Part shown: one piece after another, positions 24,001-30,000 of the stretch
Numbering within the stretch: position 1 is the stretch's first letter
Layout: the number at the start of each line of letters is the position of its first letter
From: an uncultured candidate division WWE3 bacterium
GTDB lineage: Bacteria > Patescibacteriota > WWE3 > UBA101185 > UBA10185
Assembly (NCBI GenBank): GCA_903879985.1
Contig: CAIRNR010000007.1
Location: 346,880-410,879 of the forward strand
Reading direction: 5' to 3'
DNA length: 64,000 bases
Program-made: the position numbers

Positions 24001-27000
24001 ATAAGCCCCGCTTCCGCTTTGGCATAATAAATGTACGCACCATCACCCCATATGCTGTTTCCTTGGCCATCTTCTGCGTCTGTAATAGTAGCTTTTTGAG
24101 TAAACGTTGTTCCATTAAAGGTATATGCCGTTAAAGCACCAGAATAATCGGCCGTGTAAATGTAACCATTTGCACCCCAAACTCCTACGACATTAGTACC
24201 AACAGGAGCAACATTTCCCTTAGCGGTAAACGTTGTTCCATTAAAGGTATATGCTCTCAAACCATCAGTATCGTTGGCCAGATATATGTAAGTGCCGTCA
24301 CCCCAAACTGCAGTAGCATTGCCATCACTTCCACCCTCGTGAACAGTATCCTTAAGCGTGAAAGTCGAAGCGGCATATGAATAAGCACGTAAGCCATCCG
24401 TGTTATTAGCAACGTATATATTTGTACCATCCCCCCAAACATCGTAAACCTCGGCCCCAGGGTCAAGATGACCACCTGCTGTAAATGTTGTGCCGTTAAA
24501 GGTATATGCACGTAATTCACCGTAATCTGCCAAATAGACATTAGTGCCATCACCCCAAACTTTGTAAGCAGTACCTGCAGTATTTACCCAACCAACGTTG
24601 GAAAGAAACAATGGATCAGCTGCTGCTTGCACAGGTTTTGCCAGGAAACTAAGACTCAATATACCTACACATAAGGCTATTACCACGGAGAAAACGGATC
24701 TAGTTTCTATTTTTTTAATCATATCTTTTCACCACCTTTCAATTAAATTTATTACCAATAAAAAAAGCTCAAACGAAATTCGTTCGAGCTTCAGGAGCCT
24801 CTCAGTTTTTTACTAAATATTAAGTTAACGTAAGTCTAGGAGTACTATTTTTCTTTGTCAACCTCAAACATTAGGTTTTTTAACTACCCACCCCATGACT
24901 CTATAACCGATAAATTCACCAAAATCATCAAAACGTGGTGTAAAATATAAATCATTATAAGTAAGCGTGCCCTTAGAATTGTTACCACAATCTTGTTCCA
25001 CGCGATAAGGTTGTGCTAGAGAAGAAAAATGCTTGAAAGTTTCTTTAGAAACATCACGAGTAGTTGCGGGTAAATAATCAAAATAGTTTTTACCCAAAAC
25101 ATCCTTTGGCTTAAACCCAAATATTTGTTCAACAGAAGGACTGGTATATACGTTAATGCCATTTTTATCTAAATCAATATAATAATCACAAACGTTATCT
25201 ACAAATTTAGGAATTTTCTCAGCCACAAGCTTTTCATCACTAGTATTGTTCTTCAAAATAGCCGAAACCCAAAGAAGTTTTTCACCAGTATTGTCATTAA
25301 ATAGTTTAATTAATACTAGTATAGGTATCTTTTTGCCTTCTTTAGTTTGATGAAATGTATCAAGCTGAAAATAACTAGATTCCGTTAAAGGAAACTCCGA
25401 AGTCAAAAACTTTTCACCTAATTCCTTAGGAATTACAGGATAAATTTGGGTGAAAAACTTACCAACCAATTCATCAGTTGAATAACCAAGAATGATACAA
25501 GCCGATTCGCTCGCATTGATGACGACACCCTTATCATTAATTAATAAAAGGTAATGCCTTAAATCGTCCGCATGTTTAATTTGACCTATTCTACTTAACT
25601 CACCACAACGCCTACACTTAATTTCCAAAGAGCCATCAAATAGAATGCCCTTAAACAATAGCTTGCCACATTTGCAACGATATTCATTCTCTAATATTAT
25701 TCTCATAAATAGATATATAAAAAAAAATTAGGGAGCTTCAAGAGCTTCGATGCATATAAGCTATATAAAATATAGCATAATGTGTGAGTCAATAAAGACT
25801 TTTTGTTGAAACCATAAAGACACAGTTGGGAAAGACTATACTCTAGGTTACATACAGCATAAAATATGCTAAAATCCAACACAATAGACAAATAACCGCT
25901 AAAAAAAGGAGAAACAAAATGCCGGACGTATTCATTTACGCCAAAGAAGGAATTGTATATCTGCAGGTGGAAAGGCGATTAGCAGACATCTCTGATGTCA
26001 TTGCGGTCAGTATATCTGAGCCTTTAGGAAAAAAGCACGCGCAGATTAAAACGCGCATTATTTCGGTACAAGCAGGACCAACCGTGGCAGACGTGCATAT
26101 AGAAGTACGCACAAGCAGCAAAGAATCGGCTTCACAGCGAAAATTAAGACAGTTAAGCACATTAACTGCATTGATTAATACCTGGCAGTATTTGCAGAAT
26201 ATTCAAAAATTTGTCGGGGTCAAAAAAGTGGATGCCACCGTGGAAATCTCTACTAGCGATTGGGCTATGCTTTTTGAAGAAACCCAGCCATAAAAAGTCT
26301 ATTACAAAAAGGCGTTTGGATTCATTAGAACCATGCGCCTTTTCTTTTTCCATAAGAGTTACTGTATACTGTTTTTATGGCGACAATATATATAACAGAA
26401 GCATTTGATGCCGAAAATTTTGAACGTGAAACTATAAAATCGGTGGATACGATATCCAATCACATCGTTGGACATATTATTGATGACTTTACACAAGGGT
26501 TAGAAGAAGGAATGAGTTTAGAAAACGGTACATGGGGATGGGTCGATGCTATTTTGTATGATCTTCAAGAACCCGTTGAAAATCCCGAGCACGAAATAAT
26601 TAGAGGTACATTAATAAAAACCCTTTCATATCTTTCTGAATATAATGGCCGATTTACAAAAGAGTTTGGTCGCGATGACCCAATGTTTTTTGGATACTTA
26701 ACGCCTGCAGAGTTAAAAGAATTACAAAATATTTTAGAAAAACTTCCATCTGATATCGACAAGGGATATTTGTTAGAGTTTAAAGAACAGTTAGTGGGTA
26801 TGGCTGAAGTTTGTAAGAAAAGTAATTTAGGTATTCTTTTTTCCGCTTTGCCCTAATCAACGCTAACTCTCAATGAGCTATAGGTTGATATTTTATCTGG
26901 GAAAAGTTATAATCCGAACAATTAATCCATAAATAAGGAGTTGGAAATGACAGACAGTTCAATGTTTAAAGAACTACAAAAGCTCGGGCATCCCAGCGTT

Positions 27001-30000
27001 TTGCTGACATTGCAGGTTATCGACAATGCAAAAATGCAAGACGACGTAGCCGTTATATTGGCAAACAGTGCACGACGTAGTATGCGTAAAATTGTGGGCG
27101 ATCTCTTTGTGTTCGTTAGCAAAAATGGCGCCTCAACGATGATCCCCGGCGGCGAATCTGGAAGACAAGCTGCAAGTAAGCTTGGAAAAAGCCTCGTTGT
27201 GCTGAGCGTTAACCCAACGGATAAGGACGCTTTTTACACCTTCAGGGAAAATAGCGATTCTTACGGGCCAACTTTACGAAAAGTCGTGCAACTTCTCTCG
27301 ACATCAGCACACCCAGATATCCAAAAAATAATCCGGGTCTTAAATCTGCTGGAAAATCACGCGTACTATATGGGTATCACCGGCTAATCTCAAATGGGAC
27401 AAGCAGCAAATTTAAATTACTGCTTGCCCCCTAACTCAAATCCATTTTTTTGAAAGTAGACTTAAGTTAGGTAATATATACAAAATGAAAAAAGGAGAAC
27501 AAAGATGACCCATAAACAAGGAGGAAAAATAACTTCCTCGCATACAACAGTTACAGAACTTTCAGGAGAAGTTGTTGGCTTTCTTGAAAAATGCGAAACT
27601 GTTTCAAAAATTTCAATCGGGGTTTTAATTAACTCAGCTGAAGCGAGCGGTTCTATTTGGACTGTAAAAATAATCGACGAACAAAATTGTGTGCTTGTAA
27701 AAACAACTCAAAAAAGTACAAATCAGGAACTTAGATTTTATACAAATTCTCCTGAAGCTCGCCAAAACGCGAAACTAGAGTTATCCGAGTTTGTACGAAA
27801 CAAACGCTGGAAACTGCGCTTTGGATCACACATAAACATAACCTAAACCTTGTACCGCCCAACATACGTACGAGGTTTTTTTTCTAAACAAAAAGACCTA
27901 TAAGTGATACCATTTATACATGGCAAATATCTTCGAAAAAAATAAAAAAATCATATTAGCTTTTGTAACACTTATATTATTAACATTGAGCGGGTTATAC
28001 ATGAAATATACTTGGGATACGAGTATAAAAACCACTTCTGATCAAGCATTGACCACAGGTAGAATAGCAGCGGCAACACTTTCAGAGGATGCTCTAAACC
28101 AACTTACTATAGAATCTTCAGACACAGATAAAAAGGAATATCAATATATTAAATCCAGCTTAATGGCTATTAAAAACATAAATACCAAAATTCGTTTTGC
28201 ATACATCTATGCACAAAGAGCAGGTAAAATATATTTTGCCGCCGATTCTGAATCTGTAAGTTCTTCCGATTACTCACCACCAGGACAAGAATATCCCGAA
28301 GCAGATGCTGAGGACGTACTACCTTTTACAACAAGACAAGCTATTGTTACAAAACCTGCAGCAGATCGCTGGGGAACATGGGTAAGCGTATTAGTACCTA
28401 TAGAGGATCCTACAACAAATAAGGTTATCGGCGTTTTCGGTTTAGACTACCCCGCAAGTGATTGGAACGATGTAGCTGTTGCAAGTACAGCGCAAGCTGG
28501 GGTAATAGCCTTCGGCTTTATTGGATTACTTTTTGCTTTTTACAGAGTATCTACCAGCAACATGCAAACAATAGAAAACGAAAGAAACTACAGAACATTT
28601 TTTGAATCGATTGACGATAGTATCATTGTGGCCAGTAAAGATGGAAAAATACTTTACACAAATAGTTCCTTAACTAAGAAACTCGGCTATTCGGAAAAAG
28701 AGATTAAACAAATGCATGTTTTAGAACTAAATCCAAAGAATAAAAGAAAAGAAGCCGAGCGAATATTTGGCGACATGTTAACAGGTAAAACAAAAACATG
28801 TCCTTTACCCTTGGAAAGAAAAGACGGATCTTTGATACCTGCTGAAACACAAGTATGGTTTGGAAAGTGGAATGGTCAAAATTGTGTGTTTGCCGTATCA
28901 AAAGATTTGGGCGAAGAGCAGGAGCTATTAGAAAAGTTTAATAAAATATTTAATAATAATCCGTCGTTAATGGCAATCAGTTCGTTACCTGACCAAAAGT
29001 TTACAGACGTAAACGAAGCATTCCTAACAAAAATCGGTTATGCAAAAGACGAAGTCATTGGTAAGACATCCCACGATCTACATCTTTTTATGAATGAGAG
29101 CGAACAAAAAAATGTGTCAGAGGAATTGAAAAATAGAGGAAATATCCACGATATCCCTCTACAAATAAAAACAAAAACAGGAGCAATTATTGAAGGCTTG
29201 TTCTCCGGCGAAATCATTGAAAATCAAGGGAAATCTTACTTTTTAACAGTAATGATTGATCAAACCGAAAGTAAACATGCCCAAGAAGAAATGGAAAAAA
29301 TGAACGAGGAGCTAAGATCTGTAAACAAGCTGATGGTCGACCGGGAAATGAAAATGGTGGAATTGAAAAAAGAGTTGGAAAAATGCAGAGGAACTGCGTC
29401 AGTATCGACTATAGGTTGACAGAAACATAGGGTTAAGCTAATATCTTCACAATCAAAATAAATATGGATGGAGGATTGTATGTTAAACGACGAAGAAACA
29501 TTAGACTCTTTTGTGCAAACAAAACGCCCAGGTTCCACGTGGAAACCAGAAAGATTAATTAACTGGCAGGAATCAAAAAGAAATACTGGGGTATTCCCAA
29601 ACATTGACCACACTGAACCAAACCCTGAACTCGATGGAAGCGTGCGGCAGTGGTTCAAAACCTCGTTTGCAAAACTTTGGTATCTGGAAATTCGCATGGA
29701 AGATACCAACGAACTAATGGCCCGGTATCTTTGGTTTGCCAACGAATAAACCAACACCGGCGATAAAGTTAGAACAAACCCTCTACGTAAAACAAACGAA
29801 GAGGGTTATTTTTTACAACGGCGTGATAATATTTATATATGTCCAAACAAACTAAAAAACCAGACAAAATGCCCGCAATTATGTTGGCAGGATTATTCTT
29901 TAGTATAGTAAGTGTTACAGGTTTGGTAGTTTTAAAAACCTATCTTCAGGGAAAACCCAACATTCCAATTAAACCGGACGCAACAATAATTAACCAAAAA

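Follow-up and report, generated by a model that had tools for sequence, protein, structure and literature searches.

The 64-kb stretch of DNA considered here (the window) is a low-GC (about 37%) segment of the chromosome of an uncultured candidate division WWE3 bacterium (contig CAIRNR010000007.1). Our main subject is a minus-strand gene at 24864..25706, open reading frame (ORF) A, which encodes a 280-aa protein with an N-terminal Com-type zinc ribbon followed by two PAS domains, as assigned by Pfam, a family alignment and an AlphaFold 2 (AF2) model. On the same strand, beyond a gap of 141 nt that contains a 13-bp hairpin and a T-run, lies a co-directional run of about 7–8 secreted or surface-type genes (16822..24722, minus strand; ORF and domain scans). 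The first of these encodes a 615-aa repeat protein with a signal peptide, and CARDB, dCache_1 and MG2-like domains are found in the run. A small RNA hairpin is present both in the 5′ untranslated region (UTR) of ORF A and in the leader of the surface operon, where it overlaps a structure resembling an intrinsic terminator. We propose that ORF A is a sensor-controlled antiterminator of this operon.

The Com ribbon and PAS domains of ORF A

Domains were assigned with Pfam and NCBIfam, folds with AF2 models and Foldseek, and RNA families with Rfam 15. The putative ribbon covers residues 8–39 of ORF A (25590..25685, minus strand; RCKCGKLLFKG...EIKCRRCG) and matches Zn_ribbon_Com, PF10122, with an E-value of 1.9e-4 and 21.2 bits. 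In an alignment of 30 family members of about 280 aa, which share 45–56% identity over their full length, C11, C13, C31 and C34 as well as several basic residues are invariant, and PF10122 matches 28 of the 30 at E<=0.01 (best E 1.7e-9). A two-sequence search gave 62% identity to the Com protein of phage Mu over 26 residues (E 3e-8), and the ribbon also matches Bacillus phage proteins annotated as 'gpCom control of modification'. The first knuckle is CxC, not the CxxC of Mu, and CxC is also found in alphaproteobacterial stand-alone Com proteins. A PDB sequence search with the ribbon returned nothing meaningful. Because of the invariant cysteines, the PF10122 matches across the family and the identity to Mu Com, the segment is, as judged from its sequence, a genuine Com-type zinc ribbon.

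The ribbon is followed by a PAS domain at residues 54–155 (25242..25547, minus strand; PAS_9, E 1.3e-16, 61.2 bits) and a second one at residues 168–273 (24888..25205, minus strand; PAS, E 9.5e-14, 51.8 bits), both above the Pfam threshold. The AF2 model (pLDDT 73) shows a beta-ribbon and then two PAS folds, and its Foldseek matches are tandem-PAS proteins such as ARNT/HIF/CLOCK, MmoS, DosP and PpsR. Neither a CAT/PRD nor an ANTAR RNA-binding domain was detected in ORF A by Pfam or NCBIfam. The only clues to a cofactor in the PAS domains are weak and non-specific NCBIfam similarities to PYP, FixL and DosP.

A first-pass annotation of this DNA had already read the protein as a Com-type ribbon joined to two PAS-like domains, a fusion it thought uncommon, and had placed it immediately upstream of the surface operon. 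All of this is borne out: the fusion is rare, its family is confined to Patescibacteria, and ORF A and the first gene of the surface run are co-directional and 141 nt apart. A literature search found no paper describing a Com-PAS fusion or the hairpin element treated below. Homologues of ORF A and of the second PAS protein of the window (ORF B, see below) occur in Patescibacteria, or Candidate Phyla Radiation (CPR), assemblies labelled Magasanikbacteria, Paceibacterota, Minisyncoccia and Roizmanbacteria. In this group the Com ribbon is also fused to a single PAS domain and, at one locus, to a response-regulator receiver (L034:9581-10129, a receiver with a C-terminal Com ribbon); it therefore behaves as an output module. 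Two strong matches to the hairpin model described below lie far from the receiver-Com gene of that locus, at 1936 (plus strand) and 14635 (minus strand).

Gene order and cargo

The surroundings of ORF A were compared with those of full-length Com-PAS-PAS relatives at about 22 loci. The order of a Com-PAS-PAS gene followed by secreted or cell-envelope cargo is repeated in about 20 other Patescibacteria genomes. The downstream cargo is co-directional, with a gap of 86–446 nt, at 21 of 22 loci, and the first downstream ORF starts with a signal peptide or a transmembrane (TM) segment at 16 of 22. The cargo includes giant secreted proteins of 900–2000 aa, some of them encoded by ORFs that run off contig ends, small proteins with signal peptides, polysaccharide-synthesis (glycan) operons and, at occasional loci, a kinase/response-regulator pair with a giant secreted protein behind it. 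These cargo proteins are mostly non-homologous to one another, and the upstream neighbours vary from genome to genome. ORF A thus very probably regulates the surface-protein operon directly downstream. The operon of the window also encodes a 313-aa protein (18470-19411, minus strand) in which dCache_1 is clearly recognized (E 9e-14) and a transmitter is lacking.

A conserved hairpin flanks the Com-PAS-PAS gene

When the intergenic DNA of the loci was placed side by side, a short element became apparent that reads 5′-GA-[4 nt]-C-N-N-G-A-[4 nt]-C-3′ on the gene strand, with the two 4-nt blocks complementary to each other. The window carries one copy upstream of ORF A (25733..25748, minus strand; GA-AGCU-CUUGA-AGCU-C, RNA GAAGCUCUUGAAGCUC; 23.2 bits), which ends 26 nt before its start codon, and one downstream in the surface-operon leader (24786..24801, minus strand; GA-GGCU-CCUGA-AGCU-C, RNA GAGGCUCCUGAAGCUC; 29.5 bits). 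The block pairs seen are GGCU/AGCC, AGCU/AGCU, GACU/AGUC, GGUU/AACC, GGCC/GGCC and GGUC/GGCC. The element is pseudo-two-fold symmetric in that each strand of the helix reads 5′-GA-stem-C-3′.

The hairpin flanks the Com-PAS-PAS gene at every one of 22 loci. At 20 of them a downstream copy begins 25–75 nt past the stop codon; L013 has its first copy at 217 nt and L017 has none, and at four loci a second downstream copy stands behind the first. An upstream copy, 29–77 nt ahead of the start codon, occurs at about half of the loci. (TA)n tracts are found between the upstream hairpin and the gene start in L008 (~9945-10000), L012 (~8340-8372) and L009 (1-8), and could be AU-rich translation enhancers or slippage-prone tracts.

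Because the first collection of sites had demanded pairing, an unbiased test was made in which sites were picked by their non-stem bases alone (GA....Y..RA....C). Fully paired sites made up 35 of 41 beside the gene, against 10 of 290 elsewhere on the gene strand and 7 of 372 on the opposite strand; 6 of those 10 are plainly additional copies farther into the same operons, such as one right before the giant gene in L012. In the stem cells 13 G·U combinations stand against 4 A·C, the excess to be expected if the gene strand is read as RNA. In a gap-free alignment of 35 instances, from which three with a 6-nt loop were left out, all four stem pairs show double compensatory changes (pair 1: GC 16, AU 14, GU 5), and no shuffled or slid register comes close to this covariation. 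A loose regular-expression search for the hairpin gave 30 matches against ~26 in shuffles and was replaced by the non-stem test and a covariance model.

The covariance model was trained on the CPR sites and run on the window and on 989 kb of loci. It has exactly two matches in the window, at 24783-24807 and 25730-25754, both on the minus strand and flanking ORF A. Among the loci, 67 of 68 matches are oriented like the Com gene, and 47 of the 56 that score at least 18.7 bits fall within -165..+500 nt of a same-strand ORF with a Com ribbon. Matches outside the training set adjoin Com genes with a single PAS domain (L026, L030, L032, L035, L036) and three stand-alone Com genes (L044, L048, L051). 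Rfam 15 reports only tRNAs at the gathering threshold in the window, and nothing relevant at E<=10 in 24600-28000. We are confident that the hairpin functions as an RNA element and belongs with the Com clade of ORF A, and its presence in the 5′ UTR of ORF A itself suggests autoregulation.

A 13-mer, CTCCTGAAGCTCG, at 27749-27761 (plus strand) is an exact copy of the 3′ part of the downstream site; it lies inside an ORF at 27505-27846, 160 nt upstream of ORF B, and about 0.002 such copies are expected by chance. It was rejected as a third site, because the 5′ arm and the GA are missing and its fold is not significant.

Predicted promoter, hairpin and terminator in the leader

Directly past the ORF A stop codon a promoter-like sequence, TTGACA-17-TAGACT, is predicted at 24833..24861 (minus strand). 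It is followed by the downstream hairpin and by a terminator-like structure with a U-tract at 24754..24792 (minus strand; 13 bp, stem 24792-24764, fold z = -3.2). At related loci a -10 box is predicted ahead of the hairpin in 18 of 21 cases; in 11 of the 21 it is of the extended type (TGnTATAAT) and starts 19–29 nt before the hairpin, compared with a background of 0.02 per equivalent window. With a promoter ahead of it, the hairpin is therefore predicted to lie in a leader transcript of its own, about 5–15 nt from the 5′ end. An octamer, TGTGGATA (DnaA-box-like; reverse complement TATCCACA), occurs 3–6 nt past the Com-PAS-PAS stop codon, just upstream of the leader promoter, at 6 of 22 loci, where ~0.02 would be expected (L007:10843, L008:10820, L009:867, L010:10844, L013:10841 and L014:10837); it is absent from the window copy.

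The 5′ arm of the terminator in the window includes the 3′ arm of the small hairpin. The same arrangement is found in about 22 leaders, in which the minimum-free-energy terminator stem runs from the final loop A of the hairpin and takes in the entire 3′ arm. This shared arm forms the base of the terminator stem beside the U-tract, so that the small hairpin and the terminator are mutually exclusive; the terminator is much the stronger of the two structures. The ribosome-binding site (RBS) of the first cargo gene in the window is about 25 nt beyond the U-tract. The first-pass annotation had assigned ORF A a terminator of its own. The hairpin indeed exists, but with a predicted promoter ahead of it and the Com site overlapping its stem, the structure reads better as a regulated leader or attenuator than as a simple gene-end terminator.

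Similarity to the Mu Com target and other Com genes

The Com protein of phage Mu binds a short hairpin beside the translation-inhibition structure of the mom mRNA and activates mom translation by melting this adjacent inhibitory structure; its N-terminal zinc ribbon suffices for RNA binding (Nowacka et al. 2019, PMC6483171). Systematic evolution of ligands by exponential enrichment (SELEX) yielded the bipartite motif NGAGNNCC(N)2-3GAGNNCCNN, that is, GAGNNCC(N)2-3GAGNNCC, and in footprints of the native mom 19-mer (GAAUGCCUGCGAGCAUCCC) the GA dinucleotides and the first loop C were protected (PMC6483171). The native site, which is located inside the com/mom overlap, can be parsed as GA-[AUGC]-C-UGC-GA-[GCAU]-C, or GA, a 4-bp stem, a loop C(N)2-3GA and C. 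This is exactly the architecture of the CPR element. The CPR consensus, GA(G/A)GC(U/C)C-NN-GAAGC(C/U)C, also fits the SELEX consensus at the specified positions, with two exceptions: position 3 is A in place of G in the second repeat (in the AGCU variant also in the first), and position 6 is U in place of C in some copies.

ORF A and Mu Com thus share a CxxC/CxC...CxxC zinc ribbon, a gene position directly upstream of the regulated gene, and a candidate RNA target of like architecture beside an inhibitory RNA structure. They differ in that Mu Com, a phage protein of 62 aa, stands alone and ends in a disordered tail, whereas the 280-aa ORF A is chromosomally encoded in Patescibacteria, has two PAS domains in place of the tail, and has another site in the 5′ UTR of its gene. 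The neighbouring structure differs as well: in Mu it hides the mom start codon and acts on translation, while for ORF A it is an intrinsic terminator in a promoter-proximal leader, which would point to attenuation of transcription.

Com genes ahead of secreted cargo are found elsewhere. According to one report, com-like genes of ~60 aa, their role unexplored, precede about 90% of Pseudomonas L-type bacteriocin genes (llpA) and some lysis enzymes, including those of tailocins, as well as levansucrases (PMC6240691). The organization described there, with a Com gene immediately upstream of a variable secreted-protein gene, is the same as for ORF A. The proteins differ in having no sensor domain, and the text consulted mentions no RNA site or link to a terminator.

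In motif-first scans of metagenome and viral contigs, most matches were chance or coding matches; among the metagenome matches listed, 75 of 81 lay in contigs of at least 48% GC, and the type II pattern of the scan was common in Glu-Ala-rich coding sequence. At least three Com-linked sites were recovered from non-CPR contigs, one in a 63%-GC metagenome contig (L114) and two in viral contigs (L247 and L252). These three contigs, of 47–63% GC, carry stand-alone Com genes, and behind each Com gene a GAGGCUC-NN-GAAGCCCG hairpin is joined to a strong terminator. In L114 (1185-2076) a small membrane protein comes first, followed by Com (PF10122, 32 bits), a promoter-like region, the hairpin GA-GGCU-CACGA-AGCC-C, the terminator and Phage_lysozyme. 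In L247 (reverse strand, ~13116-13140) Com and the hairpin/terminator are followed by a probable cell-wall hydrolase or endolysin, as judged from sequence, and in L252 (reverse strand, ~36-60) by the contig end.

ORF B and the genes between ORF A and ORF B

ORF B (27920..29419, plus strand; 499 aa) encodes a membrane protein with the layout TM-ectodomain-TM-PAS-PAS and a long C-terminal helix, as indicated by Pfam, NCBIfam and AF2. The first-pass annotation had given the same layout with a terminal coiled coil, which in the AF2 model (pLDDT 85) is a single 48-residue helix (29264..29407, plus strand; invariant RE..M..LK) behind a TM helix, an alpha/beta ectodomain, a second TM helix and two PAS domains. 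The PAS pair scores 68.1 bits with PAS_9 and 119 bits with TIGR00229 (E 1.1e-34), and dominates the fold search, in which the PAS-ANTAR-LOV protein PAL (PDB 6hmj), a PAS-type RNA-binding receptor, is among the matches. The ectodomain (about residues 53–183; 28076..28468, plus strand; invariant DSE..YSPPGQ..DRWGxW) resembles dCache_1 weakly (E 0.002, 18.1 bits versus a cut-off of 45), and gave no match when searched alone. The earlier statement that kinase, GGDEF, EAL and helix-turn-helix (HTH) modules are lacking is upheld, as Pfam and NCBIfam detect no HisKA, HATPase, GGDEF, EAL or HTH domain in ORF B, nor any other recognizable output domain.

About 20 full-length CPR homologues share 40–59% identity with ORF B, and the motifs of the ectodomain and of the helix are invariant among them. 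The PAS pair is 50–57% identical to those of kinases, GGDEF and HD-GYP proteins. WalK, FixL and DosP-type kinases have the same succession of a TM segment, an extracytoplasmic sensor, a TM segment and tandem PAS domains with a long exit helix; ORF B and its homologues differ in ending after that helix, with no DHp/CA, GGDEF, EAL or HTH part. The gene neighbourhoods of the homologues differ in every genome examined. Some precede a glycosyltransferase or a zeta-toxin-like gene. In L070 (8001-11824) the homologue shares 4 nt with the start of a gene for a dCache-HAMP-PAS-HisKA-HATPase kinase, and a type IV pilus-like operon (T2SSE, T2SSF, pilins) lies ahead of the two; ORF B may have a partner of this kinase type. 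In L053 (782-1639), and also in L054, an ectodomain of the ORF B type (DSE..DYSPPGQ..DRWGSW) is part of a 285-aa protein that has a histidine-kinase H-box, ATHDLRSPL, and no ATPase domain; in L053 its gene shares an operon with that of a receiver protein, and a stand-alone Com gene follows about 0.8 kb downstream. ORF B is best read as an orphan membrane sensor, equivalent to the sensor portion of a WalK/FixL-like protein that has no transmitter. Its conserved C-terminal helix presumably passes the signal to a partner whose gene lies elsewhere. We do not count ORF B as part of the ORF A system, because synteny is lacking and the neighbourhoods of its homologues are unrelated.

Four small plus-strand ORFs with no family matches in Pfam or NCBIfam lie between the two PAS proteins (25919..27846), and show no synteny with ORF A or ORF B elsewhere. 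The suggestion that these genes share a CTATAGG-type promoter holds in part: the element is real, but it marks only one of the four, with a CTATAGG-TTGATA-17-TATAAT promoter at 26878..26913 (plus strand; promoter scan) upstream of the third ORF (26941). CTATAGG abuts the -35 box at six intergenic plus-strand promoters of the window (12044, 13388, 26878, 29409, 30245 and 35035) of the form CTATAGG-TTGAC(A)-N17-TATAAT-like, mostly upstream of small hypothetical genes, and may define a promoter subclass or an operator beside the -35 box.

Other features of the window

When ORF B, the four small ORFs and the genes downstream were compared with other Com-PAS loci, synteny was seen for two genes only, g19417 (with L006) and a gene for a 950-aa protein (31195-34047, minus strand; with L028). 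The latter protein has no family matches and is 45% identical to one encoded at L028:1971-4808, directly behind a divergent Com-PAS-PAS gene (and a small protein resembling one with a twin-arginine translocation signal). In the window the 950-aa gene is on the strand of ORF A, ~5.5 kb from it and ~1.8 kb past ORF B, with no hairpin ahead. The remaining gene content includes MutS/MutL, DnaG, RpoD, SufB/SufS, one tRNA synthetase and ten tRNA genes, which are single and scattered. In 1741-5037 a phage-type integrase (2853-3728) adjoins two tRNA-Met genes and a tRNA-Ile(TAT) gene; this may be the border of an integrated element.

Possible mechanisms

The overlap between hairpin and terminator follows the logic of protein-dependent antitermination, and we therefore propose that ORF A is a one-component, PAS-gated antiterminator of the Com type acting on the surface operon. 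We estimate the probability of this mechanism at about 60%. By default the stronger terminator would form and transcription would stop ahead of the surface operon. The N-terminal Com ribbon would recognize the RNA hairpin GA-[4 bp]-C-N-N-G-A-[4 bp]-C, and the two PAS domains would sense a signal and probably set dimer geometry or affinity. With the small hairpin held by the protein, the terminator would lose 5–6 bp beside the U-tract and RNA polymerase would read into the operon. The upstream hairpin in the 5′ UTR of ORF A would be an autoregulatory site. The domain content, the conservation, covariation, strand bias and position of the hairpin, its overlap with the terminator and its likeness to the Mu target are observed, whereas the binding of the hairpin by ORF A, the prevention of termination by this binding, the gating by the PAS domains, the nature of the signal and the stoichiometry are inferred. 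Binding by a PAS-mediated dimer would be in agreement with the symmetry of the element and with the protection of both GA dinucleotides in the Mu work.

Several observations weigh against this proposal. The PF10122 score of ORF A itself is slightly below the curated cut-off of 22.9 bits. The small hairpin has only 4 bp and is thermodynamically weak, and the promoter call in the window is a modest match and a sequence prediction. The upstream hairpin copies have no terminator behind them, so that a second mode of action, on translation or stability, must be assumed there. When run on phage Mu, the CPR-trained covariance model finds no match at the known Com site; the likeness therefore lies in architecture and consensus, not in stem sequence. 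The motif-first scans were swamped by chance matches. Only 5 of 32 short stand-alone Com genes in CPR and Alphaproteobacteria have the hairpin nearby, and the element therefore belongs to one Com clade.

Four other explanations can be considered. ORF A could bind the hairpins as RNA but act as Mu Com does, as a translational activator or an mRNA-stability factor, with the large hairpin being a plain terminator at the end of the ORF A mRNA. In favour of this, the effect of Mu Com on mom is translational and involves an adjacent inhibitory structure (PMC6483171), the upstream copies, including 25733-25748, are found in 5′ UTRs with no terminator behind, and ORF A has no obvious Shine-Dalgarno sequence. 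For the downstream site this explanation fits less well. The structure there is a canonical stem and U-tract that does not cover the RBS or the start codon, a predicted promoter stands between the ORF A stop codon and the hairpin at most loci, and the overlap of the 3′ arm with the terminator base has been kept in about 22 leaders, so we regard Mu-like action as rather unlikely. The element has also been considered as a DNA operator, with ORF A being a conventional PAS-regulated, DNA-binding transcription factor. In favour of this, the inverted repeat is short and stands near promoters, palindromic DNA is a common target of PAS dimers, ORF A is similar in fold to bHLH-PAS factors and PpsR, and some Com homologues carry the NCBI name 'DNA-binding'. 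Against it, the stem positions covary and do not keep their identity, G·U occurs on the gene strand only (13 G·U versus 4 A·C), nearly all matches have the orientation of the gene, and, taken as DNA, the conserved flanking bases (5′ GA, 3′ C, loop C..GA) lack two-fold symmetry. The site is moreover downstream of the predicted -10 box, and the experimentally established Com target is an RNA hairpin (PMC6483171). A DNA operator is accordingly very improbable.

The hairpin could instead be a cis element, such as a terminator enhancer, an RNase processing site or part of a mobile cassette, that is co-inherited with the gene and bound by something other than the Com ribbon. Binding by ORF A is deduced from sequence, the gene and its flanks occur in many genomic contexts, and many Com genes have no such element. 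Yet the element fits the independently derived SELEX consensus of a Com protein, and it accompanies distant Com genes (those with a single PAS domain, stand-alone genes of CPR, and the three contigs of 47–63% GC) whose only shared protein feature is the ribbon. Other terminators are numerous in the window, yet the element occurs there just twice. A different binding partner therefore seems improbable to us. The first-pass annotation had favoured a sensory module of ORF A, ORF B and the genes between them, controlling the surface system through protein-protein interaction. The two proteins are encoded about 2.2 kb apart, both have PAS pairs, and the 13-mer of the downstream site is repeated ahead of ORF B. 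Synteny largely refutes this idea: ORF B and the four small ORFs are absent from all other Com-PAS loci (about 22), the small genes have no homologues there, and the neighbours of ORF B homologues are unrelated; the 13-mer copy has neither the 5′ arm nor the GA nor any fold signal. Nor was a kinase, receiver or anti-sigma factor that might serve as partner found among the window ORFs scanned (most ORFs of at least 100 aa). We consider a common module highly improbable. From that annotation, control of the surface system is retained for ORF A on account of the recurrent gene order and dropped for ORF B, and in place of protein-protein contacts the evidence favours RNA binding at hairpins that resemble the Mu Com target and overlap a terminator.

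The antitermination mechanism proposed for ORF A has known parallels. In the BglG/SacY systems with their ribonucleic antiterminator (RAT), and in the ANTAR systems, the unbound leader terminates, and a sensor-controlled protein stabilizes a hairpin that shares part of the terminator stem. BglG and SacY (CAT-PRD proteins acting on RAT) and the ANTAR proteins AmiR, EutV and NasR have in common with ORF A that the 3′ part of the small hairpin is needed for the terminator stem. They differ from it in their RNA-binding modules, which in ORF A is a zinc ribbon of the phage type, and the RNA motif is distinct from both RAT and the dual hexaloop of ANTAR. As it has no CAT, PRD or ANTAR domain, ORF A is therefore an analogue of those systems and not a member.

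Implications

Binding of a hairpin by Com is known from Mu. What would be new is the use of a Com-family ribbon as the output of a one-component PAS sensor, together with a conserved cognate hairpin that is wired to an intrinsic terminator. In a wider sense, we see about an even chance that the Com ribbon is a general RNA-binding output module (as in PAS-PAS-Com, PAS-Com and receiver-Com proteins), with the GA-hairpin/terminator as its riboswitch-like cognate target. Together, protein and hairpin would form a hitherto unrecognized class of antiterminators, gated by ligand or phosphorylation and either descended from the phage Com system or ancestral to it, that would time the production of giant surface proteins and glycans in episymbionts with reduced genomes.

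The pair of a small sensor and a hairpin could serve as a compact synthetic tool for RNA control. A function is also suggested for the widespread com-like genes ahead of bacteriocin and lysis genes, and the zinc ribbon would join the short list of RNA-binding output domains, next to ANTAR and CAT/PRD. As a concrete protein-RNA pair, ORF A and its hairpin would extend the 35-year-old paradigm of Mu Com from phage translation to cellular, signal-gated transcription attenuation. CPR bacteria do not grow on their own and are believed to live on the surface of host cells, and regulation in these organisms is almost unexplored. The timing of giant surface proteins and glycans, which the proposed antiterminator would control, is probably central to their lifestyle.

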